Assembly (NCBI GenBank): GCA_013152895.1
Contig: JAADFN010000032.1
Coordinates: forward strand, 1 to 55,892
DNA length: 55,892 nucleotides
Reading direction: 5' to 3'
Origin: Acidobacteriota bacterium
GTDB lineage: Bacteria; Acidobacteriota; Thermoanaerobaculia; Thermoanaerobaculales; Sulfomarinibacteraceae
Shown: piece by piece, positions 10,157 to 38,015 of the stretch
Position numbering within the stretch: the first letter of the stretch is position 1
Layout: each line of letters opens with the position of its first letter
Translations under genes and position numbers: made by a program
Notes under the pieces: generated by a model
Databases searched by the model: none
Seen by the model: only the letters and a program-made list of their open reading frames with translations
What the model was told of the DNA's origin: nothing

Positions 10157-10203
10157 AGTGGAATCATCCCCAACTCGCGGGCGGGGCTGTGGAACAATCC
10201 CCA
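10157..10203. promoter_or_regulatory. Paired 16-bp dyad sites (putative sigma54-activator enhancer), pair 1
   Basis: AGTGGAATCATCCCCA (10157-10172) and TGTGGAACAATCCCCA (10188-10203), 31-bp period, ~75-120 bp upstream of a sigma54 motif. Confidence 0.7.
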
Positions 10204-10277
10204 CACACCACCCCTGGTGCAGCTGCACAATCCAGCGTTGCCGGCGCCGTTGCGGCTTTCACAACCTTGAAGACGGT

Positions 10278-10293
10278 TGGCACGGTTCTTGTA
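10278..10293 (+). promoter_or_regulatory. Putative sigma54 (-24/-12) promoter
   Basis: TGGCACGGTTCTTGTA; consensus TGGCACG-N4-TTGC with one mismatch at -12. Confidence 0.65.
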
Positions 10294-10355
10294 TTTCTAA
10301 TGAACGCTGTGTGGGTGCGAGCACTGAACATCCGAAAACCGGGGAGGTGAGAACA

Positions 10356-11084
10356 TTGTCACATTCCAGAGCGAGGCATCTGGTTCCGGTCCGGCTGGTA
10401 GGGATTCTTGGGGCGCTCGTTGTCGTGGCATCCGCCGGCGTCGTCATCGGTGCCAGCATCATCGGTTCAAAACACGATCTCTCCACGACGGGTGGCGACC
10501 CATACTCCGACCGGGTCTGCGTTTTCTGCCACACTCCTCACCACGCCAACGACACCCTGCCCATTCAGGCGCCGTTGTGGAACCGGTTCATCGACACCAA
10601 CGAGACCTTTACCGTGTACACAAGCCCGACCATGGACACCACTCCGGGCAATCCAAATACGACGGTTTCCATGCTGTGCCTCGGCTGCCACGACGGGACC
10701 AATGGCACGGCGGTGGTCAACGGCATCACCGGGAGCACCAAGCACGACCTGATCAATGCGCCCGGCCCGGGGGGGATCCCGGACACGACGTCGGAGCCCA
10801 ACTGTCGGCGCTGTCACGGCCAGATGTACGGCGACCCGCCGGCGGTCTGGCAGGGAACGGATCTTTCCAACGACCATCCTATCGCCATGACCTACCCCAC
10901 CTCGGCGCAGGATCCAATGTTCAACACGCCGCCAGATCTCAATACCGGATGGGCTCTGGTTCCCCTCTACAACGGGAAGGTGGAGTGTCCGACCTGCCAC
11001 GATGTCCACAATCCGGCCAATACGCCTTTCCTCCGCATGCCGAACGATGGCAGTCAGCTCTGTGTCACCTGCCACATCAAGTGA
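10356..11084 (+). CDS. OmcE-like multiheme cytochrome c, pentaheme variant
   Basis: Signal peptide, SKHDLS, CVFCHTPH, PLWNR, CLGCHDG, extra CRRCH, GTDLSNDHP, ECPTCH, PFLR, GSQLCVTCHIK; TTG start 8 nt after GGAGG. Confidence 0.85.
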   Translation: MSHSRARHLVPVRLVGILGALVVVASAGVVIGASIIGSKHDLSTTGGDPYSDRVCVFCHTPHHANDTLPIQAPLWNRFIDTNETFTVYTSPTMDTTPGNPNTTVSMLCLGCHDGTNGTAVVNGITGSTKHDLINAPGPGGIPDTTSEPNCRRCHGQMYGDPPAVWQGTDLSNDHPIAMTYPTSAQDPMFNTPPDLNTGWALVPLYNGKVECPTCHDVHNPANTPFLRMPNDGSQLCVTCHIK

Positions 11085-12249
11085 TGATCTCGCGAAGCGG
11101 CTGGGCGGCGGGAAAGAGGTGCGCGACGCCAACGGTTGTTACCGTGAGGGTGAGCGCCTCTGCTATCCGCGGATCGAACTGGCTGCCCGCGCACGCCTCG
11201 ATCTCGGCCAGCGCTTCCTCGATCGTGCGACCCATCCGGTACGGCCGCGGCATCAGCATGGCGTCCAGGGCATCGGCCACCGCGATGATTCGGCTGTGAA
11301 GCGGAATCTCCTCGCCCCGCAGGCCGTCCGGATAGCCGCCGCCGCCGAAGCGCTCGTGGTGTCCCCGCACCACCGGCGCAAGGTCCGAAACCAGCGGGAT
11401 TTCCTCGAGCATCTCTGCTCCCACGACGGGATGTTGCTGGATCCGCAATCGTTCCGCCGCATCCAACGGCCCTGGCTTGCCGAGCACGCTCTCGGGGACA
11501 CCGATCTTGCCGATGTCATGAAGTGATGCGGCAACTTCCAGGCGCTCCAGGGGCGGGCGTTCGATTCCGAGTGTGCGCCCGATGTGGTGACACATATGTG
11601 CGACTCTCGCGGAGTGTCCCCGCGTCACGGCGTCCTTGGCCTCGAGCGCCGTGGCGAGCCCACGGATGATTCCCAGGTAGTTTCGCGCCTCCGCCTCACG
11701 GTAACGCCGGCAGCGCAGGCCCAGGGCCAGGTTCGTCGCGAGCGCCTCGATCACCAGCAAGTCCTCGGCCGCGAAAGCGTTGACCTCGGGGCTTGCCAGC
11801 GTCAGCACGCCAAGAAGCTCACCGTCGTGTTCGATGGGTACGCTGGCCGCGGACAGGCGACGGTACCCGAGAACCGACACCGGGCCGAAACGGCCGTCGG
11901 CCTCCACGTCGTTGACGACGACCATCTGGCGGGTGGTGGCCACCCATCCGGACAGCCCCTCGTGCAACCCGATGGTCGGCACATCGGGGAAGCACCCCGA
12001 AAGTCCCTGGCTCGCCATGAGCTCGAGAGCATTCCCCCCTGGCCTGAGTATGAAGAGCAGGCCAACGGGGCAGCCGATCTGAATGCAGGAGCTGGCAAGC
12101 GCCCGTTCGTAGGCCCTCGCCCCTTGCTCCAGGAGATGGTGGCCGGCCACGACCACCGAACGAAGCCGCCCGAGGGCGGTGCCGGTCGGTGCGTCTTCCT
12201 CCGGCGTTACAGCATTCCAAAACGCCTCGGCCTGCGAACTTTTTCCCAC
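11077..12249 (-). CDS. GAF + HD-GYP cyclic-dinucleotide phosphodiesterase
   Basis: GAF (GLSGWVA..VVNDVEADGRF), GHSARVA, LHDIGKIG, HHERFGGGGYPDGL, IIAVADALDAM; GTG start after GGAGGGGAG. Confidence 0.9.
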   Translation of the reverse strand: MGKSSQAEAFWNAVTPEEDAPTGTALGRLRSVVVAGHHLLEQGARAYERALASSCIQIGCPVGLLFILRPGGNALELMASQGLSGCFPDVPTIGLHEGLSGWVATTRQMVVVNDVEADGRFGPVSVLGYRRLSAASVPIEHDGELLGVLTLASPEVNAFAAEDLLVIEALATNLALGLRCRRYREAEARNYLGIIRGLATALEAKDAVTRGHSARVAHMCHHIGRTLGIERPPLERLEVAASLHDIGKIGVPESVLGKPGPLDAAERLRIQQHPVVGAEMLEEIPLVSDLAPVVRGHHERFGGGGYPDGLRGEEIPLHSRIIAVADALDAMLMPRPYRMGRTIEEALAEIEACAGSQFDPRIAEALTLTVTTVGVAHLFPAAQPLREIIT

Positions 12250-12332
12250 TACTCCCCTCCCGGGTGGTTGAAGATCCGCAGATGCGCCCTGTCTCCACCC
12301 TGTCTCCACGTCATAGCAGGAATCATGCCGGG

Positions 12333-15161
12333 TCAATGGCAACCACTCACCGTCGCACAGGAGAACCTCCTGTAATTCCGGCTGTTCGAGATGCTCCAGG
12401 AGTTAATCCGCGCCGTGTTCCCCCCGGCGTTGTAAGGGGCCGGATCGGACGTCAGGACGATGAGCGCCTTGCGGTGCCAGCCGTGGGGTACCGCGGAGTG
12501 ACACCACGCGCACTTGAAGGTATTGGGAAACGCCGCGGAGTGGGTCCCGTGCAGGTTGATATACCCTCCCATCCACCGGGAGAAACCGGTCTGGCCGGTG
12601 CTGCTGCTCTTTCCGGCATAGGTCTTGTAATCGTGACACTCGAAGCACAGGCCGTTGGGAGTGTTGATCCCGCTGCTCGCATCCCAGGGCTTTTTGAGCA
12701 CCGGTGCGTTCGCCGAACCGTGCGGGCCCTGGACGCCCGAAGAATCGTCGTTCCCGTGGCAGTCGGAGCACACCATGGGCGAGCTCTTGGTCCATGGCGA
12801 GCCCGCGACAAAGGTCATGTAACGGCTCGTGCTGTTGGTACGCGGCGTGTTGTTGGCCGTGGTCCAGTCAGGGGGTTGCGTCGCCGTCTGGTCAGTCATG
12901 ACCCAGTGGTAGGCGTCGTTATTGACGTTGAACTCCAGCGCCTGGTCGGTTTCGCCCGTCGGCAGCGAGGTTCCATAGGCAAAGGAGCTGTGGCACTTCA
13001 AGCAGATCTGGTACTCCGCCGACGCGGCCGCCGGGTGCGAGGTGAAATTCGCGGAGGTGAAAACGGACCACTCGTTTGGAAGAGAGGCCACGCCGACCCC
13101 CGTGGCGCCCGTCAGGGCTCCGGCCAGACCCGCCGAAGCCGGAGTGTGCAGGCCGGCCTGCGCCCGGTGCGTGTCGTGGCAGTCGAGGCAATTGACGTGC
13201 CGGTTCGCCCCGGAGAAGGTCCCGTCGTTGAAGGTCGCCCCTTCCTCGGCCACGGTATTGTGGACGGAATCGGCCTCCACCGGGTGGCTCGATGCCTTGG
13301 CGATCACGGTCGCCACGTCCTTCCCCGAAAGGTTGACTCCCGTGGTCCCGTTTCCGTGACAGTTGTAACAGATGAAGTCGGAGGCGTTTCCTGCTGGGTT
13401 GATCGATCCCGAAAGTAGATCTGGATAGTCGGAGAAGTGGACGGCCCCGAACGGGCTGGAAGAGGCATCCGGTCTGCCGTCGCCACGATCCGCGTGGCAC
13501 TTGGTGCAGTTGCGTTTGAACGTGGAGCCGTCGTGAATCGTGTAGGTCCACGTACCGTAGGCGTTGGAAGTGTAGTTGTGGGCCGAGGCGCTGAAGGCCG
13601 TCTTGTCGATGGTAGGCCTCCCCGAAGCCACGGCGTTCTTGTGGCAGGAGACGCACATCCCGCCGTTGGCTTGGCTGGCGTCAAAATCCGTCTGGGCAGG
13701 CGTCCCGGAGATGATCTCGCCGTTGACGTTCCGGCCCACCGCCCGGCTCGCCTGGGTCGAGGCATCCTGATGGACGTTGTAGTTGTGTGTGGTTCCACCG
13801 GGCGTGTTGTGCACGTGATCCGGGTGGCACATGTTGACGCAGGAACGATCGGCGGGCGCCACCGCCGAGAGCGGCGCCGTCCAGGCGACACCGCTGTCTG
13901 TGAAGCTGTCGTTGACACCCAGCACGGAGCCAATGGAATGCCGGCTGGTCTTGGCCGTCGTGCCATTCATGCCCTCCCAGATCGTCGCGTGGCACCCTGC
14001 GCAGTTTGTGCCGCCCTTGCTCTCCGTGGCTGCGAAGCCCCGATTGTGGGGATGGCAGTTGACGCAGCGCGTGCCAGCATTGTGGGTGTGATTGCCACTG
14101 GCGTTGTTCCGGTGGTACTTGGTTCGTGTATGACAGGCTTCGCAAATGCCGTCATCGTAAGGAGCCGGCGTCGGAGAGGTGACCCCGAGGTAGCTCCGGT
14201 TCGGATTCGTTCCCCCGGTCCTGTCGTCCTCCCAGAACGTGATGTCCTTGGGACCGCTCGAGGGCGTCTCGATCGTTCCCCGGATCAGGTAGATGTTGAG
14301 CGTCCTGTGGGGCGTATGGCAGGTGAGACAGTCCACGGCCCAGTTGCCGTACTTGGTCCCCGTGAATTGGCTCGAATGGGTCGCCAGGTTGTGGCAGTCC
14401 ACGCAGAGCTCGGAGCCATTCGTACGCCGGAGGAGCTGCCCGCTGCCCGCCGGCCGCGTCCCATTGTTTCTCACCGAGACGCCCCGGACCGCGCGGGCGA
14501 CGTTGCCCGCTGCATCGGTGACCTCGACGGTGATCTCGTGCCAACCCCGCGCCAGGGCCGTCAGGTCAACGTTGAACTCCCATACCGAGCAGTTGGTTCC
14601 GCAGTCGTAGTTGGAGTTGACGGTCGCCGTCGTCGATGGTGCTCCCCCATCCACGTACCAGGCGAGCGGCGTGGCCGCAAGACCCCCCTCATCCCACACC
14701 TGGACCTTGACCCGCTCCGTGCCGCCGACCACCGCCCCCTGCGCGGGCACGAGGATGAGGACCGTCGGCGCGACGGTGTCCGCGCCACACGAGGGAAGGG
14801 TGAACGGCCCCAGCACCTCGGGGTTCGAACCGGAGACACCATCGGGATCGCTGAATGTCACGCGTACCCAGTAGCTCTGGCCCGCGGTCAGGCCGGGAAC
14901 CAGACACTGGCGCGGAGAGCCGCCGGAAAGTGCGCTACAGGCCACCGTTCCGGGCCAGCTATTCGCCGTGTTGTACTCCACCTGCGTGGCGCCATCACCG
15001 TTGTCGTCTCCCGTGAATCTGGACGTCACCGTCAACTCCGAGCAGGAAGACACCAGAACGTCGGACCCGACGACAACCGTATTGTTGCCAGCGAACGCGA
15101 TCATGGGAACAGCCAGGATCATGGCGAGGAACGGTCCCGTCAACGTACGTCGAAGCATCAT
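12333..15161 (-). CDS. Large secreted multiheme cytochrome c (13 CXXCH + CX3CH + CX5CH) with N-terminal FN3/Ig-like domains
   Basis: Signal peptide; DTVAPTVLI..P, GWHEITVEVTDAAGN (Ig-like); manual motif count; ATGA overlap with the upstream ORF stop. Confidence 0.9.
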   Translation of the reverse strand: MMLRRTLTGPFLAMILAVPMIAFAGNNTVVVGSDVLVSSCSELTVTSRFTGDDNGDGATQVEYNTANSWPGTVACSALSGGSPRQCLVPGLTAGQSYWVRVTFSDPDGVSGSNPEVLGPFTLPSCGADTVAPTVLILVPAQGAVVGGTERVKVQVWDEGGLAATPLAWYVDGGAPSTTATVNSNYDCGTNCSVWEFNVDLTALARGWHEITVEVTDAAGNVARAVRGVSVRNNGTRPAGSGQLLRRTNGSELCVDCHNLATHSSQFTGTKYGNWAVDCLTCHTPHRTLNIYLIRGTIETPSSGPKDITFWEDDRTGGTNPNRSYLGVTSPTPAPYDDGICEACHTRTKYHRNNASGNHTHNAGTRCVNCHPHNRGFAATESKGGTNCAGCHATIWEGMNGTTAKTSRHSIGSVLGVNDSFTDSGVAWTAPLSAVAPADRSCVNMCHPDHVHNTPGGTTHNYNVHQDASTQASRAVGRNVNGEIISGTPAQTDFDASQANGGMCVSCHKNAVASGRPTIDKTAFSASAHNYTSNAYGTWTYTIHDGSTFKRNCTKCHADRGDGRPDASSSPFGAVHFSDYPDLLSGSINPAGNASDFICYNCHGNGTTGVNLSGKDVATVIAKASSHPVEADSVHNTVAEEGATFNDGTFSGANRHVNCLDCHDTHRAQAGLHTPASAGLAGALTGATGVGVASLPNEWSVFTSANFTSHPAAASAEYQICLKCHSSFAYGTSLPTGETDQALEFNVNNDAYHWVMTDQTATQPPDWTTANNTPRTNSTSRYMTFVAGSPWTKSSPMVCSDCHGNDDSSGVQGPHGSANAPVLKKPWDASSGINTPNGLCFECHDYKTYAGKSSSTGQTGFSRWMGGYINLHGTHSAAFPNTFKCAWCHSAVPHGWHRKALIVLTSDPAPYNAGGNTARINSWSISNSRNYRRFSCATVSGCH

Positions 15162-18100
15162 GGCCCGTCCTCCGTGAAGGTATTGCTGTCGGCGTAATGA
15201 ACCCCGTGGCACGTCAGGCACTGGACACGGCCCCCGGCATCCAGGCGAAGGTTATCGGAGCTCACACCGTCCCCTCCGCCTCCCCCCTGGACGGCGCCGT
15301 TCCCGTCGAGGGGCACCGAGCGGTCGTATCCCCGCCCGTTGGCATTGAGGGCCACGCCGACCGGATGACTCTTCCATTTCCAGTCGAAGACCTCAACCTC
15401 GTTGTAATCCATGGTCCAGAGGGAATGACAGTCACGACAGAACTTGTCGCCGCTGGTATTGTCGCCCTGATCCAGGGGCGCGCGGAGGAAGGGATACGAC
15501 GCCGAAAACCGCCAGCGCTCTCCCAGGACGAAGGTCCCACCGGAGAAGGTTACCGTCAGGCCGTTGTCCAGGGGGACGCCGGTGCCGATGTCCGCTTCAC
15601 CGGCCCAGGTGGAGCCGCCGTCCTTGGAGTACCGAAAGTGGGCATTGGCGATGGTGATCTCGATCAGGTAGGACGAGCCCCCCGCACCGGTGTACGTCCC
15701 GCCCACGGTAACCTGCCCCGTACTGCCCAGGGAGGTGATGCGTTCCGGCGGTGACACGCGGAGTTGGCCGCGGTTGCTGGCCCTGGCCTTGTGCTGATCG
15801 TGGCATGTGGAGCAGACGACGTTGCCATTCATGATCCGTTTGACCATCTCGGGATTTGTTGGCATCTGGGCGCCCCACTGGGACGCATCGACCGGAACAT
15901 CGAAACGGTGCGTCGTTCCCGCCTGGCCCGGCACGGCCCTGTCCGACGAGTTGATGGGCAGAGCGGACGCAAGCCCGCCGGGGCTGTGACATGACTGACA
16001 GAGGTTAACGTTCCCGGCCGAGGTCGTCAGCGAGCCGCCCGCCGCATGGTGCCCCGTGTGGCATGAGGCGCAGTCGATGCCGAAGTACCAGTGAGGCGGG
16101 TCCACGGCCTGGACGGTCGCGGTCCCGGCGAGAAAGACGCCGATGAACACCAAGACCAGCGTGCGGCGCCGGAGAGCTGCCCACCCGGCAAGAGCGAGCA
16201 GCATCGCCATGAGGGCAAGGCCCCAGGGACCCACGGTGGGGATGCTTGCCGCCTGTCCGCCTTCGCCCGAGAGCGTGGCCGTCACCGGACCACCGGACGA
16301 CGTGCTCTCGACGGTCAGAGTCGCTTCCATGTGGCCCGTGGCATCCGGTGAGAACCGGACCTCCAGGGTGCAGGACTCCCCCGGCCCGATGGTGGCGCCG
16401 GTACACGGGTCGGCGACGAGAACGAACTGGGCGGCGTCCTCACCACCGATCTGAACGCTCGTCACGTCCAGAAAACCACCGCCGGCGTTGGAGAGCGTCA
16501 GGGTCCCCGGACCGCTGCTGTGACCCACAGCTACCGTTCCGAAATCCAGGCTGCCTGGCGACAGCTGCGCCAGGGCCGCGGGCGCCGCGATACCCCTCGC
16601 CTGAAGCGCGACCGTCTGGGAACCCTCTCCGCTGCACTGGAAGCTCAGGTCTCCCGCCACCCGGCCGGACCGGACCGGATCGAAAACAACCGTGGCGGTG
16701 CAGCTTTCACCGGGCGCAAGTCCATCGCCGCAGGTGGTCTGCGTCTCGAAGGCGGCGGGCCAATGGATACCGTAGATCCCCACGGGGACAGGACCCGTAT
16801 TGGTCAACTTGACAACGCGGGGTTCGCTCGTCTGTCCCACGGTGACATCTCCAAAGTCAAGAAGCGCCGGACTGGCTTCGGCCTGGGGAACCTCGGCTTC
16901 GGTGCCATCGAGCCGGAAGATCTGGACGCTGGAGGAATTGACAGAAGCTATCGCGAGACGTGGCGGGTTCTCCAGCACGGCAAGCCCCATGGGAGTGTGA
17001 AAACGCCCGGACTCGTCCCCGTACGTCCCCAGGCTTTCCCGGAAGCTGCCGTCGGCGTTGAAGGTCTGGATCCAGCTCTGGAAGGCGTCGGAAACGTACA
17101 GCACGTTCCCCGGTCCCACGGCGACACCGGCGGCCCGCGTCAGCTCTCCTTGACCATTGCCGAGGGAAGAAATGCTCTTGAGAAAGTTCCCCGCAGGATC
17201 GAAAACGAGGACCTGGCCGAGCACGGCGTCAGCCACCAGAACCTCTCCCGCGGGCGACCAGGCCAGCGCCACCGGTTCGCGAAATTCGCCGGAATTCTTC
17301 CCGCGCCGGCCGAAGGTGGCGGTAACGGTGCCCGACCCGTCGAAGGAAACCACCCGGCCAGTGGCGCCGTACAGGACCCAGATCCGATGGCCGGCCTGGT
17401 CGATCGCCACGTCGGTGACGGGACCGAGGGGAGCCCCAGGATCGAGACTACTCAGGATGCTGCCCGTGGCGGACAGCAGAAGCAGTCCTGTCCGGGTTCC
17501 CACCACGAGCCGGCCGAGCCAGTCCCCGGCCACGGAGGTGACGCCAGGGACCCGAACGGTTCCCAGAAACTCGCCCGTAACCGGGTTCACGAAATCCAGC
17601 CCGTCCACGGCCGCATCTGTCACCGCAAGGTCGCCCCACTCGTTGACACCGACGTCGAACGGAGCGGCCAGACCGCTGTCCAACGCCGTCTCCGCTACGG
17701 CGTTCGAGATGGTGAAATCCAACGTCTTGGAGGAGCTGTTGCCGCTTGGATCGCTGGCGGTGCACGTGACGGTTTCCCGTCCCGGAGCGGCCGGCGCGTG
17801 ATACGTGGCGGCGCCGCCGGAGCCGGGCGACACCGTGCCAAGGGCCGCAGACCAGCTGAAGGTAACGGGATCCCCCTGCGGATCTACCGCAGTCGCCTGC
17901 AACTGGGCGTTGCCGTCGACCAGAACCGGGTCATGGTCGACGGTCAGCGAGGTGATCACCGGCTCCTGGCCGGCGGTTGCGCTCACCTTGATCACGACCT
18001 GGGCGCTGGTGGTCTGACGGCCCCCGCACAAGGAGGTTCCGCTGTCAGCGAGTGTGATCGTCACGGTGACCGTTCCCTCCGTGGACGGCGCCCTCCAGAC

Positions 18101-18436: not shown

Positions 18437-18465
18437 GATTCGTTCCCTCCCTCCAAATATACCTG

Positions 18466-18481
18466 AGCAAGAACCATTCCG
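18466..18481 (-). promoter_or_regulatory. Putative sigma54 promoter for the leftward cytochrome operon
   Basis: Minus strand CGGAATGGTTCTTGCT, GG-N10-GC with TTGC, 30 bp before the GTG start. Confidence 0.55.
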
Positions 18482-21898: not shown

Positions 21899-21929
21899 GC
21901 ATCGTTTGTTTCCCAGAGGAGGCCGAACA

Positions 21930-28834: not shown

Positions 28835-29817
28835 GGAGATTGGCGTGGCTCCTGGTGGCTGCCGGGGCGCTGGCGGGCGCCTGCACCGTGGTCCATCACG
28901 CACCATCGGCCCACGAGGGGGCCGGGGTCCGGTTGTGGCCGGCGGAGCACCCGCGTATCGAGCTCGTCCGGGTTCTCGGTGTCCGGGGTGACCTGCGCGG
29001 TGGCGGGCTCCTGCGTTGGCTCCGGGGCGGACGCAAGGATCCACTCTTCGCCAGGCCTTACGGCGTGGCCTGGGATGGCGAGGCGCTCCTCGTGGCTGAT
29101 CCCGGGGCTGCCCGAGTCCTGAGGATCGCGCCGGGCGGCGGCATCCGCCAGAGCAAGGAGGGCCTCTTCGTGGCGCCAGTGGCCCTGGCCGCCTGCGAGG
29201 GAGGCATCGTCGTCACCGATCCGGCGGCCGGAAGCGTCGCCCTCCTCGACCGTGACCTCCGGCTTTCCCGCTGGCTGGCTCGCGATCTCCAGCGCCCCAC
29301 GGGCGTGGCGTGCGTGGGTCCCCATGTCTACGTGCTGGAGACCGGCGCCCACCGGCTGGTGGAGATCCGGGATCAAGCCGTGGTTCCCGTGCTCGGAGGG
29401 CGGGGAGATGGACCCGGACAGTTCAACTTCCCCACGGCCCTGACGGCCGACGGGTCCACCCTCTGGGTGGGTGATACGCTTAATTTCCGGGTCGTGAGGG
29501 TGGATCCGGCGAGCCGCCAGGTCCTGGAGACCTTCGGAACCCTGGGTGATTCCCCGGGAGAGATGCCCCGGCTCAAGGGGCTGGCGGTCGATCGGGAGGG
29601 ACGCCTGTGGATCAGTGACGGTCTTCTTGACCAGATCGCCCTGTACACCCGGGGAGGAACGTACCTCATGTCGATCGGACGACACGGAAGCGCTCCGGGT
29701 GAGCTGAGCTTCCCCGCCGGGCTCGCCACCGGGCCACACGGACGGGTCGTGGTGGCCGATTCCCTCAACCGGAGGCTCCAGGTTTTCGCGCCCGTCCCAA
29801 CGGAGGCAATGCCATGA
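28831..29817 (+). CDS. NHL-repeat beta-propeller lipoprotein (paralog of 23700-24759)
   Basis: Lipobox LAGAC, LWPAEHPRIEL, GQFNFPTAL, GELSFPAGLA, VADSLNRRLQVF; ATGA overlap. Confidence 0.88.
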   Translation: MRRLAWLLVAAGALAGACTVVHHAPSAHEGAGVRLWPAEHPRIELVRVLGVRGDLRGGGLLRWLRGGRKDPLFARPYGVAWDGEALLVADPGAARVLRIAPGGGIRQSKEGLFVAPVALAACEGGIVVTDPAAGSVALLDRDLRLSRWLARDLQRPTGVACVGPHVYVLETGAHRLVEIRDQAVVPVLGGRGDGPGQFNFPTALTADGSTLWVGDTLNFRVVRVDPASRQVLETFGTLGDSPGEMPRLKGLAVDREGRLWISDGLLDQIALYTRGGTYLMSIGRHGSAPGELSFPAGLATGPHGRVVVADSLNRRLQVFAPVPTEAMP

Positions 29818-30512
29818 ACGGCCCACAACGATCGTCCCGATTTCTGGCGGCCGGCCTGGTTGTGTGCCTGTGGACCGTGCTGCCCAGCCCTGCGGTGGCC
29901 CAGCAGCGGGTCGCAGACACGCTCCACAACCTCTCGGTCAGTGGCCCCGGCGCGATTCATTCGGTCAGCGAGACGCAAGTGTGCAAGTTCTGCCACATCC
30001 CGCACAACGCCGTCGTCCCCCATCCCCTCTGGGGGCACACCCTTTCCTCGGCCGACTACCGCGTACCCGACGTGATTTCGCCCTCGGGAGGAAAGCTGCC
30101 AGCGCCCCAACCCGACGGCTCCTCCCGGCTCTGCCTGTCCTGCCACGACGGTACGGTGGCGCTCGGCGACCTGGGCGGGAAACGGCCCATCCCCATGCTG
30201 GGGAGCCAGCGCCTGACCCCCGGACGGCGCGGTTTCATCGGCACGGATCTCAGCGGAAGCCATCCCATCTCTTTCGTCGTTCGTGACGCTACCGGTGCCC
30301 GTGGCGCGGCAACTGAACGGGACATGGGGCTCCGTCCCCTTTCCTCCATCACGGCAGATCCGGACGTCCGGCTGGACGCCATGGGAAAGATGCAGTGCAC
30401 CACCTGCCACGATCCCCATAGCGATCAGTATTACAAAAAGGGCCAGGTCCCCCACTTCTGGGTCAAGCCGACGGTCCAGGAGGTCTGTATCACATGCCAC
30501 GCCCTCCGGTAA
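29814..30512 (+). CDS. Second OmcE-like tetraheme cytochrome c
   Basis: Signal peptide, LHNLS, CKFCHIPH, PLWGH, SRLCLSCHDG, IGTDLSGSHP, QCTTCHDPH, CITCH. Confidence 0.87.
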   Translation: MNGPQRSSRFLAAGLVVCLWTVLPSPAVAQQRVADTLHNLSVSGPGAIHSVSETQVCKFCHIPHNAVVPHPLWGHTLSSADYRVPDVISPSGGKLPAPQPDGSSRLCLSCHDGTVALGDLGGKRPIPMLGSQRLTPGRRGFIGTDLSGSHPISFVVRDATGARGAATERDMGLRPLSSITADPDVRLDAMGKMQCTTCHDPHSDQYYKKGQVPHFWVKPTVQEVCITCHALR

Positions 30513-31714
30513 TCGCACCGTTTCTCGCGTTTCTCCTGGGTGTCGCGGCTCTCGCTGCCGGCCAGACGCCCCACATGGACCCCAGCCGCGTGCCCGGGTC
30601 GTGCATGGCCTGCCACATGGGTCACGGGGTCAGCGGCTCACCCATGCTCTCCGAGCCGGTTGACGCCGTCTGTCTGCGCTGCCACGGAACCCTCAGCGAT
30701 CGCAACCGCATGATCATGGAAGGATTGCTGGCCGGTGACGCCACGCCCCTGTCTTTGAGCTCAGTCCTCGCCCAGCCGTACACCCACCCGCTCGATGCCT
30801 CCGCCACCTCGGCCGAAACTGCTTCCACGGCCACCTGTACCTCGTGTCACGCACCACACCGTGGGTTCGAGGGCGCCGGGAACCAGCCGGCCGGCATACC
30901 GAAACGCTCCCCGAAAAACCCGAACCGCTTCGAGTATCAGCTCTGTGAGGGGTGCCATGGCAGTGCAGGCGCCACCACCACGAGCGTCTCCGATATCAGC
31001 CGGCTCTTTTACCCTGGTAACGCTTCCTACCACCCGGTAGAGGCGCCAGCCAACGACAGCTCCCCCTCCGTCATCGCATCACTGAGGGGCAAGCAGATCA
31101 GCTGTACGGATTGCCACGGCAACAGCAACCCGGCCGGGCCCCGGGGTCCTCACGGGTCCGCCGTACAGTACATCCTACGCCTCAATTATGTGACAACGGA
31201 TGGACCGGAAAGCCCGAACGCCTACGCCCTGTGCTACGCCTGCCACGATCGCAAGAAGGTGCTCGACAGTACGGCATTCCCGGAGCACGGCGAGCACATC
31301 GTGAAGATCGGGGCCTCCTGCGCCACCTGCCACAATCCGCACGGCTCCGTGATCAACCGAGCCCTGATCCGTTTTGGCGAGGAAACCATCATCTCGGGAG
31401 TGGCACCGTCACCCTCGACGGGCCGGCTCGCCTTCGTGTCGACGGGCCCAGGGTCCGGGGCGTGCTACCTGCTCTGCCACGGGAAGGACCACGGTCCGGC
31501 GACGTACGGATCGGTGAGCCTTCAGCGCCTCCAAAGAAGGATGGCGCCCGGGCCGTCCCGGGTTCCAGCAGAGACGACGCTCCCTTCACGAAGGGTCCTG
31601 AGGGGTTCGGGCGTTTCTCCACGCAAGCACAACCCCCAGGATGATACCGAGCCGCACGGCCGACCCCCAGTCCACGCTCCCGCTCCCGTGCGCCACCAGG
31701 CTCCACAGGAATGA
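30494..31714 (+). CDS. Multiheme cytochrome c (7 CXXCH + CX3CH)
   Basis: Signal peptide; CMACH, CLRCH, CTSCH, CEGCH, CTDCH, CYACH, CATCH, CYLLCH. Confidence 0.88.
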   Translation: MPRPPVIAPFLAFLLGVAALAAGQTPHMDPSRVPGSCMACHMGHGVSGSPMLSEPVDAVCLRCHGTLSDRNRMIMEGLLAGDATPLSLSSVLAQPYTHPLDASATSAETASTATCTSCHAPHRGFEGAGNQPAGIPKRSPKNPNRFEYQLCEGCHGSAGATTTSVSDISRLFYPGNASYHPVEAPANDSSPSVIASLRGKQISCTDCHGNSNPAGPRGPHGSAVQYILRLNYVTTDGPESPNAYALCYACHDRKKVLDSTAFPEHGEHIVKIGASCATCHNPHGSVINRALIRFGEETIISGVAPSPSTGRLAFVSTGPGSGACYLLCHGKDHGPATYGSVSLQRLQRRMAPGPSRVPAETTLPSRRVLRGSGVSPRKHNPQDDTEPHGRPPVHAPAPVRHQAPQE

Positions 31715-32152: not shown

Positions 32153-32890
32153 TCACGGCGATCCCTCGAGCGTCCGCTGGAGCCTTGCAAACAGCGGGGT
32201 CAACCGGTCGGGGTCGCCCGTCGCGGCGAGGATGACCCGGTAAAGCACCCCGACGTCCGTGTGTCCGAACGAGGTCGCGGCAGCCCACCGGGGTTTCGTG
32301 TCCGCGATCAGGCGGTCCAGGGCGTGACCCGCCTCCGGATCGAAGCCTTCGGGGTCGACGAGCTGGCCGAGACGCCGGGATACCGGCAGCGTCAGCCAGA
32401 GATGCGTGCACCGCTCCGCATCCCGGTGGGAGAACGCACGTTCGAGACGGTGGGCCAGCCGCTGGAGGCTGGGACCGACCGCGATCAGCCGCGGCTCACC
32501 GTCCCAGCGTTGACGAACGACGAGGTTGTACACGTCATCGGGACGGCGCAGCGTTTCGGCGACGCGGACCAACGTGTCGATGAGATCCGTCCGGACCCGG
32601 GCCTCGTCCGCCAACGGCGCGTCGATCTCAAGATCCAGGCGCCACGACTCATCTCCGGCGATCGCGCCGGCTTCGCGCCGCGACGCACCGTGGCCGGACG
32701 CCCCCGCGAGCTGCCAGCGAACATGGCAACCCCGGCCACGACGCGAGGCACGCACGGTGCGGACGAGCGCAGCCCAGGGGGCGAGAAGCACGAGGAACAC
32801 GGCGCCGGCCGCGGCCCGCAGGCATCCCCCCCGCGGTGGTTTCCCCGCTGCATCACACCGTTCCGGTTGGCGCAGCGCGCCTTCAGTCAT
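32153..32890 (-). CDS. Hypothetical membrane-anchored protein, last gene of the ccm operon
   Basis: ATG overlaps the ccmF stop; one N-terminal hydrophobic helix (AVFLVLLAPWAALV). Confidence 0.55.
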   Translation of the reverse strand: MTEGALRQPERCDAAGKPPRGGCLRAAAGAVFLVLLAPWAALVRTVRASRRGRGCHVRWQLAGASGHGASRREAGAIAGDESWRLDLEIDAPLADEARVRTDLIDTLVRVAETLRRPDDVYNLVVRQRWDGEPRLIAVGPSLQRLAHRLERAFSHRDAERCTHLWLTLPVSRRLGQLVDPEGFDPEAGHALDRLIADTKPRWAAATSFGHTDVGVLYRVILAATGDPDRLTPLFARLQRTLEGSP

Positions 32891-35426
32891 CCCTGAGCGG
32901 AATCGAGGCAATGTCTCTCCGGCGGTAGACCATCGCAAGAAAGATGCCCAGGATGAGGATGATGGTTCCTATCCACACCAGGGAAATGCCAGGCTTCGTC
33001 GAGACGTCCAGCACGAGGCTCGGCCGCGCCGGCGGCTGGGGCGGAAGGGACGGATCGTAGAGCTCGAGCTCGACGGCCCCCCCGTTGGCGTCGATCTTTC
33101 CGAGCGTCAGGGCGAGGCCCCCGCTCCCGGGAATCCCGGCTGGAATCACCCGTTCGGAGGACGCGGTGTCCTTGAGATACTTCGGTTCCAGCGCGTACGT
33201 CTTCCCCTCCCGCGTGACCTTGAGCTTGACGCCGATGTGAATCCGTCCGGCCTCGGGTTTGAAGTCGGAGAGATCGAACCCCTCGAACGTCGCCGTGACG
33301 CCGTCGTATTTCAAGCTCTGGCCCACTCGAAGCAATGCCTTACGCGCGATGCCACCGCCAAGACCGAGGAGCTGAACTCTGATGACGCCCGAATTCGCAT
33401 CCATCCCGCTGAGCCGAATCTTGCCGGCGCCGGTGCCTGGGATCGTCACCGGGACCGCCTGGACCCCCTTGTTCGTCGAGATGATCGAGGGCTCGACCTT
33501 CACCGGCTTCTCGCCGGGGCGGTCGATCTCGACGACAGCGCCGACGGTGATCGCATTCGGAACGGCATTCTGACGGGACAGGTCGAACCCCTTGAAAACC
33601 ACGTGCCAGCTCCTGAAAGCGACCGGCCGATCCTTCGCCAACCTTAGCGTGCCACTGACGGGCGCTTCCTCCCCCGGATCGTACTGGGCCGGCGCCAGGT
33701 AAAGATCGCCCATGATAGATTTCTTGATATCCGGTTTGGCGACGAGCTGATTCGTCTTGCGGTTGATCCACATGTGCGGTTTGAGCACGTAGCTCTTGCC
33801 CTTGGGGGCCGTCACATCGACTACCATTGCATTGTGAGATTCTGGGGTCGACTGCTCAACACCCTTGAAGGTCAGCGTATAACCGAGCACCTTCGTCGGA
33901 TGACCCTCGACGAGCCGGAGCTTCACCCTCTGCGAGTACACGCCCGAAACCAGGAAAGAAAGCAGCATGATCCCCACGCCGATGTGCGTCAGAGGCCCCC
34001 CCACCTCCTTCCAGCTCCCGTGGCGGACACCCCTGATGAGCTTGCTCGCGTTCGCGACGATGGCGAAGAAGGCAACGGCGACGTACGCAAGATAAAGCGG
34101 CTGCCGGGCACCCAGGACGGCTGCCAGCGCCGTGAGCAACGCCGTGATCCCGAGAACAACGGCCAGGCGCCGGCCGGCCTGACGCATCGGTCCCTTCCAC
34201 GTGAGGAAAGGGATGATCCCCAGGATCAACGCCAGGGCCATGGCCAAGGGCAGACCGACCCGGTTGTAGAAGCTCGGACCGACCTGGGCCGGCTTCGTGA
34301 AGAGCTCCGTAATCAACGGCGCCGACGTGCCGACGGCGACGAAAAGCCCCGTCGCCAGAAGCAGGAGAATGCCAATAACCGAGATTATGGTCAACGACCA
34401 GAACGGCTCCTCTCCGCTCTCGGCTGGAATCTCCTTCCAGCGTAACGCGAGCAGGCCGACGGAGATGATCAGGAAGAACGCGAGGTTGAAGACGAGCCAG
34501 GCCGTGATCCCGAGATTGACGAACGAGTGAACCGAGAAATTGGCCAGGACGCCGGACCGGGTCAGGAACGTTCCGTACACGACGAAGAGAAAACCCAGGA
34601 CGGCCAAGACGATGTTGAGACGCCGGAATCGCTTTCGCGCCCTTTGAAGCACAAGCCCGTGGGTCAGGGCTGCCGTCATCAGCCACGGGACCAGCGATGC
34701 GTTTTCAACGGGATCCCAACCCCAGTAGCCACCCCAGCCGAGCGTCTCGTACGACCAGTAGGCGCCAAGCATGATCGCCGCACCCAGGGTTACGAGGGCG
34801 AGAAGCACCCACGGCATCGAGGCCTTCGTCCACTCGTCGTACCGTCGCATCCACAGGGCCGCCATGGCGAACGCGAAGGGAACCGCCATCGCCGCGTAGC
34901 CGATGAACATGACCGGCGGATGGATGACCATCCACGGGTTCTGCAAGAGTGGATTGAGCCCGGCGCCGTCCAGCGGGATTCTCGCCGCCGTCAACCCCGG
35001 GTGGAAGTGGAACGGGTCCTGCTTCACCAGGAGCATGATCAGCGAAAGAACGGTCAGGTTGTAGAAAATCATGGCCCTCGACTCGTAATGCCGGGCGTAG
35101 CGCATCAGCGGCAGGCCCAGGAGCGAGGCGAAAAAGACCCACAGAAGGAAGCTTCCCTCCTGCCCCGCCCAGAAGCTCGAAACCAGGTATTGCCAGGACA
35201 GGGAATTGTCCGAATACGCCGTCACATACGAGAGGCGGTAATCGTGCGTCAAGAGCAGGTACATCAACAGGCCGGAGGCCGCAATCACGGCCACCGTCAT
35301 CAGCACGTAAGCTTGGTGCGCCGTCGTGCGCCAGCGATCCTCGCGCAGGGACAGGACATAGGCGACCGTTGACGCAATGCCGAAAAGCAATGCCGCCCAG
35401 AGCAGAATGGACCCAGGGTAGTACAT
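32883..35426 (-). CDS. ccmF: Cytochrome c heme lyase CcmF with an extended C-terminal periplasmic region
   Basis: FWAGQEGSFLLW, GLNPLLQNPWMVIHPP, WGGYWGWDPVENAS, FLTRSG..SVHSF, HIGV, KPGISLVWIG. Confidence 0.95.
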   Translation of the reverse strand: MYYPGSILLWAALLFGIASTVAYVLSLREDRWRTTAHQAYVLMTVAVIAASGLLMYLLLTHDYRLSYVTAYSDNSLSWQYLVSSFWAGQEGSFLLWVFFASLLGLPLMRYARHYESRAMIFYNLTVLSLIMLLVKQDPFHFHPGLTAARIPLDGAGLNPLLQNPWMVIHPPVMFIGYAAMAVPFAFAMAALWMRRYDEWTKASMPWVLLALVTLGAAIMLGAYWSYETLGWGGYWGWDPVENASLVPWLMTAALTHGLVLQRARKRFRRLNIVLAVLGFLFVVYGTFLTRSGVLANFSVHSFVNLGITAWLVFNLAFFLIISVGLLALRWKEIPAESGEEPFWSLTIISVIGILLLLATGLFVAVGTSAPLITELFTKPAQVGPSFYNRVGLPLAMALALILGIIPFLTWKGPMRQAGRRLAVVLGITALLTALAAVLGARQPLYLAYVAVAFFAIVANASKLIRGVRHGSWKEVGGPLTHIGVGIMLLSFLVSGVYSQRVKLRLVEGHPTKVLGYTLTFKGVEQSTPESHNAMVVDVTAPKGKSYVLKPHMWINRKTNQLVAKPDIKKSIMGDLYLAPAQYDPGEEAPVSGTLRLAKDRPVAFRSWHVVFKGFDLSRQNAVPNAITVGAVVEIDRPGEKPVKVEPSIISTNKGVQAVPVTIPGTGAGKIRLSGMDANSGVIRVQLLGLGGGIARKALLRVGQSLKYDGVTATFEGFDLSDFKPEAGRIHIGVKLKVTREGKTYALEPKYLKDTASSERVIPAGIPGSGGLALTLGKIDANGGAVELELYDPSLPPQPPARPSLVLDVSTKPGISLVWIGTIILILGIFLAMVYRRRDIASIPLRDD

Positions 35427-35527
35427 GAACCCCCCTCACATGCGGAATACCGCTCATCGGTTCAAATGATCACAACTCCGAATGTCATCAGCAACCAGGG
35501 ATATCGGGACTCGCCGAGGCCGCACTG

Positions 35528-35938
35528 TCATGAACCGCTCGTTGCACCCGGTTTTTCGAGCCCCTGGTACTTGGAAGGACACTTGACAAGCATCTGCGTG
35601 GCGTAGAACGCGCCGTTGTGGTACCTGCCGATGACGACGATTTCTTTCGCGTCCTCGAAATTCCCGGGTTTGACGCCCTTGTACAGAACGCGCATCTTCT
35701 CGCCGTGCTTGTTCATGATCATAAAACTGAGCTCGTTGGCGCCCTTGACAAAGCTCGAAGAGCCCCGGACCAGCTCGCCCGCGACCTGGACCTGCCGATG
35801 TCCCGACATCGCGTCGCCGAAGGACACGTACGGCGTCAGGTTTGACTTGAACGATGTCGCTCCGAACGCGATGAAGGCAATCAGGAGGACACCGCCGATG
35901 ACGTACCAGAGCTGCCGCTGTCTCTTCGGATCCTTCAC
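35528..35938 (-). CDS. ccmE: Heme chaperone CcmE, cysteine (CxxxY) type
   Basis: N-terminal TM, VLYKGVKPGNF, F.ATQMLVKCPSKY. Confidence 0.93.
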   Translation of the reverse strand: MKDPKRQRQLWYVIGGVLLIAFIAFGATSFKSNLTPYVSFGDAMSGHRQVQVAGELVRGSSSFVKGANELSFMIMNKHGEKMRVLYKGVKPGNFEDAKEIVVIGRYHNGAFYATQMLVKCPSKYQGLEKPGATSGS

Positions 35939-36048
35939 AGATCTTCCCTTTCCAGGCGCCTGACCTTGCGATCCAGGCGATAGATGTAGCTGAAGAGCCC
36001 CGCCCAGATAATAAGCGTGACCAACATGATTCCCAGCAGGTCATTCAT
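35935..36048 (-). CDS. ccmD: CcmD-family small membrane protein (37 aa; absent from the ORF track)
   Basis: MNDLLGIMLVTLIIWAGLFSYIYRLDRKVRRLEREDL; abuts the ccmC stop and has a GTGA overlap with ccmE. Confidence 0.85.
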   Translation of the reverse strand: MNDLLGIMLVTLIIWAGLFSYIYRLDRKVRRLEREDL

Positions 36049-36729
36049 TTACAGCACCTCCTGCTGCCTGCGCCGCCGGATCCTCTCGATCCGGCACGCC
36101 ACAGTGTACAACCAAACAAAGAGCCCGGAAAATCCCACAAGTGATCCCATGAGCACCTCGAACATCCGCGAGCCCATCTTGATCTTCGCCTGGGCGTTGA
36201 TGATGGTATCCGGGTGGAGCGACCAGTAGATCCTTGGCACGACGAAAACGAGGAACGGAACCGTGACGAACGCAAGGATCGAATAGACCGCCGCCAGGGA
36301 CGCCCGGCGCTCCGGATCGGCCACCGCGGCCCGGAGGGCGAAGTACGCCGCGTAGATCAGCAAAAGAAACGTAATCGACGTCTCCCGCGGATCCCAGTTC
36401 CAGTACGAGCCCCACATGATCCGCGCAAAGATCGATCCCGTCACCGTCGCGAGGATGGCGAAGAGCAGCCCGAGCGAGCTCGCAACCTCGGCGCGCACGT
36501 CATCGGCCATGGAACGGGTCCGCAAGTACCGGATCGAGGCGACGCACGAGACCAGAAATGCCAGAGTCGCAACCCACGCAATCGGCACGTGGAAGAATAC
36601 GATGCGGCTCGACTGTCCCTTGAAACCGGCTGCCGCCGGGGCGTAGAAGAACGCGGCCCAGATGATCACACCGATCCAGACGAAGAGGATCCACTTGAGG
36701 ACCTCCCCACGCGAGCGGCGGCTACTCAT
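36049..36729 (-). CDS. ccmC: Heme exporter CcmC
   Basis: RIVFFHVPIAW, WGSYWNWDPRET (WWD domain), SLHP. Confidence 0.95.
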   Translation of the reverse strand: MSSRRSRGEVLKWILFVWIGVIIWAAFFYAPAAAGFKGQSSRIVFFHVPIAWVATLAFLVSCVASIRYLRTRSMADDVRAEVASSLGLLFAILATVTGSIFARIMWGSYWNWDPRETSITFLLLIYAAYFALRAAVADPERRASLAAVYSILAFVTVPFLVFVVPRIYWSLHPDTIINAQAKIKMGSRMFEVLMGSLVGFSGLFVWLYTVACRIERIRRRRQQEVL

Positions 36730-37402
36730 TCCACACCGCCGGAAACAGAACGATTGAAACGATTGTCATGACGCCTCCCAAGGATACAACGGCCCGCAGA
36801 GCGCTCCCGGCGCCCTGGGCCGATCCCTCCGCCACCGCTCTCGTTCCCTGGATGACGAAGATCAGCAGCGGAAGCAGCAACGGCAACGAAAGCACCGAGA
36901 ACAGAGCGCCGCGCGACGAGGCACGGGCGATGATTGCCGCCACGATCGTTGTCGTCACCGCCAGAGTATACCCCCCGGCAAGCAGGATCCAGATCAACCC
37001 GCCCACGGAAAGGACCTGGAAACCCATCAGGACGACGTAGAGCGGCACGAGAATGACCATCAGCAATTCGAGCACGACAAAATTGAAAAGCAGCTTGCCA
37101 CCCCACACGACCAGCGGCCGCGCCGAGAGGCGCAGGAGCGCAGCCGTGTGCGAATCCTCCTCCTTGACGAATGAGCGGTCGAGACCAGCCATCGCCGCGA
37201 AGAAGATGACGATCCACAGGAGCGCGGAGAGCAGGTACGGCCGGTCGGCTTGAGCAATCCGGTACGGACCGATCGTGTAGGAGATCGCGGCCAGCGTGGT
37301 GATCGCGAAGAGCCCAAGCGCATTGAAAGCCACGCGGGTCCGCAGCTCAGTCCTCAAGTCCTTGACGAAGACTGCCCCTGCCTCAGCCAGAAAGCGCCAC
37401 AC
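36722..37402 (-). CDS. ccmB: Heme exporter permease CcmB
   Basis: KDLRTELRT, LLWIVIFFAAM.GL.RSF..EED, GKLLFN, LSLPLLLPLL; GTG start. Confidence 0.92.
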   Translation of the reverse strand: MWRFLAEAGAVFVKDLRTELRTRVAFNALGLFAITTLAAISYTIGPYRIAQADRPYLLSALLWIVIFFAAMAGLDRSFVKEEDSHTAALLRLSARPLVVWGGKLLFNFVVLELLMVILVPLYVVLMGFQVLSVGGLIWILLAGGYTLAVTTTIVAAIIARASSRGALFSVLSLPLLLPLLIFVIQGTRAVAEGSAQGAGSALRAVVSLGGVMTIVSIVLFPAVWNE

Positions 37403-38015
37403 GGCTCGTCCCCCATTCCATTTCCCTGAGATCGTTCGTCGCGAGCACGATCGTCTTCCCGGCCCTCCGCTGGCCACCAACCAGCTCCTCCAGCCAGCCC
37501 TGCCCGGCCGGGTCGAGATTGGCTCCCGGCTCGTCGAGGAACAGGACCTCCGGATCGTGCAGGATCGCCTGTGCGATCTTCAACCGCTGGTGCATCCCGG
37601 TCGAAAAACCGCGAACCTGCGTCTTTCGCTCAGGATCCAACCCGACACGTTCCAGGGAGGCGCGGCACCGCTTCTCGGCGTCCCGGACACCTCGGACCAG
37701 CGCGAAGAATCGCAGGTTCTCCAACGCGTCCAGCTCCTCGTACAGGCTCATCGCGGGCGCCACGATCCCGAGATGGTCGCGCCAGCTCTCGCGGGGAATC
37801 TCCCCGTCGGAGCCAGCCCGGTACCGGACCGTGCCGCGCGTCGCCCGCACCAGCCCGCACAGGATCGTCACGAGCGTCGATTTTCCAGATCCGTTCGGGC
37901 CCGTGATCGCCAACACCTCTCCGGGCCCCACGCGCCCGGACACGCTCCGGAAAACCACCCGCATGTCGAACCGCTTGGCCAACTCCTCGAACTCGATCGT
38001 GATCCCACCGCTCAT
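37383..38015 (-). CDS. ccmA: Heme ABC exporter ATPase CcmA
   Basis: GPNGSGKST, LENLRFF, FSTGMHQRL, LFLDEP..NLD; first gene of the ccm operon. Confidence 0.9.
   Translation of the reverse strand: MSGGITIEFEELAKRFDMRVVFRSVSGRVGPGEVLAITGPNGSGKSTLVTILCGLVRATRGTVRYRAGSDGEIPRESWRDHLGIVAPAMSLYEELDALENLRFFALVRGVRDAEKRCRASLERVGLDPERKTQVRGFSTGMHQRLKIAQAILHDPEVLFLDEPGANLDPAGQGWLEELVGGQRRAGKTIVLATNDLREMEWGTSRVALSG

Follow-up and report, generated by a model that had tools for sequence, protein, structure and literature searches.

We report a genuine gene cluster of the OmcE/Uet type in a new host phylum, Acidobacteriota, with a split undecaheme, a 21-heme cytochrome that we propose to be a relay and a five-heme paralogue of the tetraheme subunit. 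It lies in contig JAADFN010000032.1 of an Acidobacteriota bacterium (assembly GCA_013152895.1); by the window we mean the whole 55,892-nt stretch that was analysed. The core of the cluster, an operon at 21.5–31.7 kb, encodes a tetraheme homologue of the nanowire subunit OmcE, a sizeable beta-barrel of the outer membrane, two NHL beta-propeller lipoproteins, a prolyl isomerase and further multiheme cytochromes. The original prediction, made by a model from the letters of the sequence, described a candidate OmcE-type nanowire system with three cytochromes of one motif series; of this, the OmcE homology, the barrel, the companion genes and the acidobacterial host stand, whereas a reading of the three as like filament subunits does not, and the cluster is less exotic than had been supposed.

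An OmcE homologue with barrel, propellers and chaperone

Among all PDB chains, the only significant phmmer matches of the three small cytochromes in the window are 7TFS, the OmcE filament of Geobacter sulfurreducens, and 9YUQ, the OmcE bundle of Desulfuromonas soudanensis. OmcEa (25253–25921, plus strand), a tetraheme of 222 aa equivalent to UetA, matches 7TFS over residues 6–222 against 9–232 (E 1e-34, 123.3 bits), the top 7TFS score among nine OmcE-like sequences tested, and 9YUQ with E 3.3e-32. OmcEb (29814–30512, plus strand; 232 aa) is also a tetraheme (7TFS E 3.8e-19; 9YUQ E 4.3e-13), and a third OmcE-like cytochrome with a signal peptide lies at 10356–11084 on the plus strand (7TFS E 7.5e-27; 9YUQ E 2.5e-23). 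In a 14-row alignment the four CXXCH motifs and four extra histidines (in HDLS/HNLS, CHxPH, DHP and CHxxH) are invariant, as are eight cysteines and eight histidines in a 37-row alignment. The distal histidines H28, H52, H154 and H198 (OmcEa numbering) are unchanged across the 14 and the 37 rows and occur at equivalent positions in 26 rows; their four regions are the named conserved regions of OmcE (PMC13712944, cited here and below from part of its text). Because the alignments run end to end, with CXXCH and the four histidines invariant, the relation extends beyond the heme-binding motifs, and the motif series predicted for all three proteins is real. Judged from its sequence, OmcEa is the likely major filament subunit.

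The predicted size and heme number, three tetrahemes of about 220–230 aa, hold for OmcEa and OmcEb. The protein at 10356–11084 departs from the OmcE family definition (about 200–230 aa, four CXXCH), having 242 aa and five CXXCH; its additional motif is CRRCH, and a further KHDL lies within an insertion seen in the alignment. Genes for a large barrel and beta-propeller lipoproteins are present in the operon at 21.5–31.7 kb, and homologues with such genes nearby are regarded as potentially nanowire-forming (PMC13712944).

A six-frame census of CXXCH motifs in open reading frames (ORFs) of at least 80 aa with at least two motifs yields exactly seven multiheme ORFs in the window, the predicted number, all at 10–32 kb. 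On the plus strand these are 10005–11084 (5 CXXCH), 21831–23681 (21), 24998–25921 (4), 29703–30512 (4) and 30422–31714 (7, or 8 with a looser motif); on the minus strand they are 12333–15251 (13) and 15158–18616 (5). As the genome contains 22 ORFs with at least three CXXCH, one third of its multihemes lie here. A second multiheme-rich region, on contig C47 of the host genome (G000; 7368–39293), has ORFs with 9, 5, 23, 11, 10 and 7 CXXCH and a NapC/NrfH-like match at 13517–13789.

The plus-strand order is histidine kinase, sigma-54 response regulator, sigma-54 element, 21-heme cytochrome, first NHL lipoprotein (NHL1), a further sigma-54 element and OmcEa, followed by a PpiC/SurA-like isomerase, the 592-aa barrel, the second NHL lipoprotein (NHL2), OmcEb and a 7-heme cytochrome. 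Pfam, AlphaFold2 and Foldseek thus recover the 21-heme cytochrome, two NHL lipoproteins, parvulin chaperone and barrel that had been predicted for the operon. The 21-heme cytochrome (21876–23681, plus strand) consists of paired-CXXCH/c7-type repeats (Pfam Paired_CXXCH in 11 stretches, Cytochrome_C7 in four) and is the proposed relay, with a presumed location in the periplasm.

The barrel gene (27056–28834, plus strand), equivalent to UetC, matches no Pfam family, and a large protein collection holds 14 homologues, one of them named as Acidobacteria. From their alignment AlphaFold2 models a signal helix and about 27 long antiparallel strands (predicted local distance difference test (pLDDT) 76.3; predicted TM-score (pTM) 0.66), and Foldseek returns large outer-membrane barrels only, with the lowest E-values for TonB-dependent transporters and the best TM-score (TMq 0.47) for MtrB (6R2Q_B); together they bear out the prediction of a barrel. 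We compared it with relatives of the cluster obtained by scanning one genome per species for OmcEa homologues, which gave 418, of which the best 80 loci were kept. Against the ORFs of these 80 loci, jackhmmer finds the barrel only in a second Thermoanaerobaculia metagenome-assembled genome (MAG; locus L005), and BLAST single linkage sets it apart from a 57-member family of large ORFs at the same cluster position. In hhalign, the window barrel matches the 45 of these 57 that are uncut by a locus end with 98.5% probability (E 3.1e-15, 549 columns). As this is a profile–profile match to position-equivalent ORFs, we take the barrel to be a divergent member of that family; its specific variant is rare, occurring in 4 of 401 genomes of the phylum.

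Between OmcEa and the barrel lies a gene for a periplasmic PpiC-type prolyl isomerase with a SurA-like N-domain (26021–27049, plus strand; Pfam Rotamase 3.1e-18, SurA_N_3 7.9e-4), equivalent to UetB. Both NHL lipoproteins are on the same strand: NHL1 at 23700–24759 (lipobox TIGC; Pfam NHL 2.5e-20) and NHL2 at 28831–29817 (lipobox LAGAC; Pfam NHL 3.5e-14). The NHL2 match falls within ORF 28705–29817; the protein most likely starts at about 28831, at its lipobox, and this start overlaps the stop of the barrel gene. NHL1 is 84% identical to its L005 counterpart until residue 328, after which the last ~25 residues are read in the +1 frame, with a one-base insertion near 24683 (GGGGAACCAG against GGGGACCGG in L005). 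The long ORF to 25256 is thus an artefact of the frameshift.

The host genome comprises 2.99 Mb in 221 contigs and is 96.9% complete. Ribosomal protein L2 (host contig C44) has its nearest named relatives, at 82–83% identity, in Thermoanaerobaculales, Acidobacteria/Acidobacteriota and Ca. Sulfomarinibacteraceae, and the nearest named matches of the cluster proteins likewise belong to Thermoanaerobaculales, Acidobacteriota and Ca. Sulfomarinibacteraceae. By these protein relatives the host is an acidobacterium of the class Thermoanaerobaculia, outside Desulfobacterota, in keeping with the predicted non-Geobacter origin.

A split undecaheme and a possible anchor

The three OmcE-like genes differ in kind. 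The second NHL gene is followed in most phyla by a gene for an 11-heme protein (69 fused rows), of which the first ~220 residues are OmcE-like and the remainder carries seven hemes; the N-module of a Geobacteraceae example matches 7TFS with E 1.4e-27. At this position the window has OmcEb and then a separate gene for a 7-heme cytochrome with its own signal peptide (30494–31714, plus strand). Residues ~22–338 of the 7-heme protein align by BLASTP to the C-terminal part (median subject start 259) of all 68 of 68 fused 11-heme ORFs. OmcEb falls within the fused clade, among the N-modules of 11-heme proteins, in a FastTree phylogeny of 144 modules (5 partial rows dropped), and in an IQ-TREE analysis of 60 rows (29 chosen and 31 random) the likewise split gene from a Nitrospirae MAG joins it at 95*. 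Both trees were built from sequences other than 7TFS, 9YUQ and those of Tenderia. Given the gene position, the 68 of 68 matches of the 7-heme protein and the Nitrospirae split form, we prefer to read OmcEb and the 7-heme cytochrome as a split form of the conserved undecaheme (UetJ-type), mainly on position and the 7-heme match, over OmcEb as a recent duplicate of OmcEa. A reading of the three OmcE-like genes as like filament subunits is not supported.

In the Nitrospirae MAG (GWC2_42_7; locus L010, 7940–15967) genes for an NHL protein, a tetraheme and PpiC are followed by a gap, a further NHL gene and, as separate genes, a 4-heme and a 7-heme cytochrome; the gap has the size of a barrel gene, and no barrel search was made on it. 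With this layout, which is that of the window, the split form is common to two phyla. Seven standalone tetrahemes, from Acidobacteriota, Nitrospirota and Gammaproteobacteria, make up the starred clade in which OmcEa itself sits. The protein at 10356–11084 pairs (99*) with another five-heme protein, encoded at the head of the cluster in an Opitutales MAG; such a five-heme paralogue stands beside the cluster in 6 of the 80 loci, and five-heme OmcE-like proteins are known in uncultured bacteria (PMC13712944).

Two Desulfuromonadia MAGs (L045 and L059), examined for a close orthologue of solved OmcE, have standalone tetrahemes that score only 45–51 bits against it. In the Geobacteraceae MAG L045 (2035–11602), the standalone tetraheme reaches 49 bits and the 11-heme N-module 99.8 bits; a sigma-54-like element lies upstream of the standalone gene.

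We then consider how OmcEa and OmcEb might fit together. Complex prediction of the pair with four hemes, in three runs and with three controls, gave a score of 0.79 (runs 0.79, 0.81 and 0.76) against 0.00 for the best control. Of 80 solved complexes 58 attain the same mark, as do 2 of 110 mismatched pairs, in a calibration that differs from our case in its alignments and in the ligands riding along. The runs share at least 96% of contacts, with a partner pLDDT of at least 86. The predicted interface brings OmcEa residues 210–222, 146–154 and 77–81, where the last CXXCH and the histidine of DHP lie, against OmcEb residues 30–72, at the N terminus and first CXXCH, which suggests a head-to-tail contact of the OmcEa C-terminal heme-4 region with the OmcEb N-terminal heme-1 region. 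The modelled docking also suggests an in-operon anchor for the filament, and, as OmcE filaments are already solved, its pass may simply reflect the likeness of OmcEb to a filament subunit.

How OmcE wires start, end and are mounted on the cell is a question raised in PMC13712944, which states that OmcE operons contain no candidate for an anchor or tip. We offer a tentative answer that we consider possible but doubtful: the conserved undecaheme (UetJ; here OmcEb plus the 7-heme protein) would be the anchor of OmcE nanowires, with the five-heme protein as tip or branch, and Uet and OmcE would be one machine. The N-terminal OmcE-fold module may use the ordinary interface between subunits to take up the filament's last subunit at its heme-4 end, the 7-heme part may lead the heme chain on in the direction of the barrel or through it, and the five-heme OmcE-like paralogue, which recurs, may be a tip or 'leaky' branch subunit. 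If this were true, an operon-encoded protein would plug the wire into the cell both electrically and mechanically, and the literatures on Uet electron uptake and OmcE nanowires would merge into one machine over at least a dozen phyla; an in-cluster protein with an OmcE-like first module is present at this locus and at 42 of the 80 related loci. The Thermoanaerobaculia form would be easy to express, delete or pull down, since its OmcE-like module is a separate small gene.

Regulation, distribution and neighbouring genes

Two regulators precede the 21-heme gene on the plus strand. The histidine kinase (18500–20104; Pfam HisKA and HATPase_c) has one CXXCH, CKPCH at residue 187, between two hydrophobic stretches, and 7 of 10 other cluster-linked kinases have CXXCH at residues 131–187; this pattern suggests a putative redox sensor with covalently bound heme c. 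The response regulator (20108–21466; receiver, AAA+ and Fis helix-turn-helix domains; Pfam Sigma54_activat 5.6e-63) is sigma-54-dependent, and rpoN is found in the host genome. The −24/−12 element TGGCAC-N5-TTGC has only two matches in the window, both on the plus strand: 21473–21487, 7 bases past the regulator stop and upstream of the 21-heme gene, and 25170–25184, about 70 nt before the OmcEa gene, whose ATG is preceded by the ribosome-binding site GGGAGG. Both 15-mers are identical in L005, the first of them at the same place. Since a looser pattern would turn up 1.8 times by chance, the case rests on placement and conservation rather than on count. Farther upstream, a GAF and HD-GYP-type (HD_5) regulator on the minus strand (11077–12342; Pfam HD_5 2e-38, GAF_2 1.9e-14) is, going by its family, probably a cyclic di-GMP phosphodiesterase.

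The cluster is widespread, being neither rare nor confined to Geobacter-like hosts: besides the uet cluster already in print, the full quartet of standalone OmcE-like gene, NHL gene, barrel-family ORF and 11-heme gene occurs at 42 of the 80 loci, in 12 named phyla. In this count the barrel of L005 was credited by hand and L005 and L010 were credited with a split undecaheme; many of the 38 loci that fall short of the quartet are short contigs. The kept relatives come from Acidobacteriota, Verrucomicrobiota, Planctomycetota, Bacteroidota, Calditrichota, Pseudomonadota, Nitrospirota and others. Within the host phylum, an OmcE-like match (E ≤ 1e-10) occurs in 56 of 401 sampled genomes and 45 of 227 genera. 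In L005 the whole operon is conserved, with proteins 68–90% identical and both sigma-54 15-mers in place. A cultured Fe(III)-reducing acidobacterium, Geothrix fermentans DSM 14018 (L008, 8837–10660), has an OmcE-like tetraheme (7TFS E 2.4e-32) directly 3′ of an NHL gene, with a second OmcE-like gene and a 7-heme-type gene nearby.

Two further cytochromes lie between the five-heme gene and the kinase, both on the minus strand. A 13-heme cytochrome with an Ig-like N-terminal part (12333–15221; Pfam Paired_CXXCH, Cytochrome_C7 and a weak Big_7) probably sits on the cell surface. The other is a mosaic protein of 1144 aa (15158–18592) with PKD/Ig domains, an NHL propeller, two choice-of-anchor-D domains and a C-terminal five-heme module (Pfam, NCBIfam). 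An IPTL-CTERM-like sorting segment stands in mid-protein (residues 782–810), with the five-heme module after it; the midcut-by-XrtH model scores 41.9 bits, below its cut-off of 45, and an exosortase has only a weak match in the genome (G000:C121:29068–29481, 28.6 bits).

Genes for System I cytochrome c maturation follow on the minus strand (32883–38150), adjoining the operon as predicted: Pfam identifies CcmF (32883–35426), CcmC (36049–36729), CcmB (36722–37480) and CcmA (within 37383–38150), and a CcmE-like gene (35528–35938) was recognised by eye, no family search having been made. The CcmE-like ORF has CPSKY where the heme-binding histidine motif is expected, and we take it to be a Cys-type CcmE variant. 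CcmF, at 847 aa a long protein, carries a large extension at its C terminus and has a short match of ResB-like type. Past the ccm genes, at 39896–48087, are a Ser/Thr kinase with PD40 repeats and exopolysaccharide genes (epimerase/dehydratase, UDP-glucose dehydrogenase and Wzz/tyrosine-kinase type); glycosylation genes follow many OmcE clusters (PMC13712944). The window has no Rfam match at the gathering threshold and no tRNA gene.

Proposed mechanism and known systems

From the homology, domain content, gene order and host established above, we infer each step of a mechanism, including filament formation, export by the barrel and the direction of electron flow; overall, a Uet/OmcE-type extracellular cytochrome module in a Thermoanaerobaculia genome is the reading that we think probable, with some reserve. 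The cytochromes would be exported by Sec and loaded with heme by the neighbouring Ccm system, and the 21-heme protein would move electrons across the periplasm. The ~27-strand barrel, with the two NHL lipoproteins and the PpiC chaperone, would form the outer-membrane conduit and assembly site. Like OmcE in Geobacter and Desulfuromonas, OmcEa would polymerise head-to-tail, giving an insulated wire of hemes. Joining wire to barrel would fall to OmcEb and the 7-heme protein, together the undecaheme that is fused in most other phyla, the OmcE-like module of OmcEb docking on the filament end. The heme-c sensor kinase and sigma-54 activator would turn on the two sigma-54 promoters, before the 21-heme gene and before OmcEa. 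The likeliest course for the electrons would be outward, with Fe(III)/Mn(IV) oxides or partner cells receiving them.

Several observations weigh against this reading. First, the AlphaFold2 model of the OmcEa monomer without hemes (37-row alignment) is unusable (pLDDT 45.7, pTM 0.30). Second, a sister relation of OmcEa and OmcEb survives an approximately unbiased test (p 0.107), so the tree alone fails to prove a split-undecaheme origin. Third, only 2 of 71 standalone OmcE-like genes at other loci, and 1 of 75 fused ones, have a sigma-54 element within 250 nt, which rules it out as a general feature of the family. Fourth, the NHL1 frameshift may be an assembly error or a real defect. Fifth, a genome of the same genus (G143, 99% complete) has the ccm operon at 79% DNA identity and outer flanks matching at 79–84%, but lacks an OmcE-like gene and a barrel and has nothing that matches window positions 2.8–32.2 kb at the DNA level; its ccm-bearing contig ends 264 bases beyond the match. 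As G143 lacks a match to 2.8–32.2 kb, the block is accessory, and it is patchy. Sixth, our search of the literature on OmcE, nanowires, Acidobacteriota, Thermoanaerobaculia and Geothrix turned up no description of an acidobacterial cytochrome filament. Finally, the uet authors interpret their cluster, in the part of the preprint cited below, as a porin–cytochrome conduit for electron uptake, and with its heme-copper oxidase the genome offers a possible aerobic sink for imported electrons.

Three other explanations take up these points. In one, the undecaheme would sit in the barrel like MtrA in MtrB, a conduit that forms no polymer, and OmcEa would be a monomeric or short-oligomeric terminal reductase on the surface. 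Such a conduit is what the uet authors propose for the same architecture; MtrB is the barrel's best TM-score match, and the predicted OmcEa–OmcEb contact also fits a 1:1 surface complex. OmcEa, however, is as close to the two proven filament subunits as other standalone members and keeps all their heme-ligating residues, and its barrel and propeller neighbours place it among the homologues described as potentially nanowire-forming (PMC13712944), so that we consider a conduit of this kind unlikely.

The same machinery might instead serve electron uptake, by oxidation of Fe(II), a cathode or partner cells, a role put forward for Tenderiales and Gallionella. Since wires of bis-His multihemes are reversible, gene content cannot settle the direction of electrons. 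Descriptions of the uet cluster come only from cathode- and iron-oxidising lineages, and one heme-copper oxidase is present here; against uptake, RuBisCO was not found in the 96.9%-complete genome, and a cultured relative reduces Fe and Mn oxides anaerobically (PMC8528874, cited from part of its text). We regard uptake as the main function as quite unlikely. That the cluster is decaying or silent, an accessory block recently gained or being lost with NHL1 already broken, would fit the frameshift, the absence of the block from G143 and its patchiness in the class (an OmcE-like match at E ≤ 1e-10 in 0 of 3 genomes of the host family and 0 of 2 of the host order), but is improbable given that the other 15 genes of the block are intact, that promoters and ribosome-binding site are conserved and that a single-base insertion in a G/A/C run is a common assembly error in a 221-contig MAG.

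Among the known systems closest to the outward-directed OmcE/Uet-type module, the reading that we prefer, are the OmcE clusters. A second OmcE filament, from D. soudanensis WTL, has been solved (PMC13712944, mBio 2026), and the minimal cluster given there comprises OmcE, a large barrel and two each of multihemes and beta-propeller lipoproteins. The window has these companions, as had been predicted from Geobacter nanowire clusters, and OmcEa shares with OmcE (7TFS; 9YUQ) a length of ~220 aa, full-length homology and the same four CXXCH and four distal histidines. The window differs in its host phylum, which is not among the five in which the cited portion of PMC13712944 lists cluster-supported homologues, and in having a PpiC gene between subunit and barrel, a 21-heme relay, a second OmcE-like gene in the operon with a five-heme one 10 kb away, and maturation genes of System I (ccm) rather than resB/ccsB. 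OmcE filaments have been seen, whereas the system in the window is known from its genes.

The uetA–J cluster of Ca. Tenderia electrophaga encodes a tetraheme, a prolyl isomerase, a 28-strand barrel, trihemes, a cupredoxin, two NHL proteins and an undecaheme, with ccsAB adjoining (10.1101/2022.05.06.490989, cited in part); it also occurs in Gallionella (PMC10734462). The window has the tetraheme (UetA), isomerase (UetB) and barrel (UetC) in the same order, then NHL (UetH/I) and the extracellular undecaheme (UetJ) in its split form, with maturation genes adjacent. Its operon lacks the three periplasmic triheme c7 proteins and cupredoxin (UetDEFG) and has instead an upstream 21-heme protein with c7-type repeats; its undecaheme is divided into 4-heme and 7-heme genes; and uet hosts are aerobic iron or cathode oxidisers. 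The equivalence is drawn from the published description and from Pseudomonadota loci of the same layout. MtrCAB/Pcc systems likewise encode a large barrel with periplasmic and extracellular multihemes, and MtrB is the barrel's best structural match by TM-score, but there is no sequence relation: NCBIfam MtrA/DmsE-type matches fall far below cut-off except in the 21-heme repeats, and the NHL lipoproteins and OmcE-like subunit are without an Mtr counterpart.

The two literatures have run side by side. The cited portion of PMC13712944 does not mention Uet, Tenderia or an undecaheme, nor do the cited portions of the Tenderiales preprint and PMC10734462 mention OmcE, and searches on UetJ, UetA, the uet cluster and undecaheme electron transfer returned only the latter two as relevant among the papers listed. 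Syntenic clusters of multihemes and a barrel, seen as candidates for metal reduction, have been described both in Thermoanaerobaculum aquaticum, which reduces Fe/Mn oxides, and in MAGs of Thermoanaerobaculia (PMC8528874). With the present locus Acidobacteriota, whose class Thermoanaerobaculia abounds in sediments, join the hosts of complete clusters; if a wire forms, acidobacteria would be added to the organisms that respire minerals or partner cells at a distance. The locus also connects the uet cluster, read as one for electron uptake, with the OmcE nanowire cluster.

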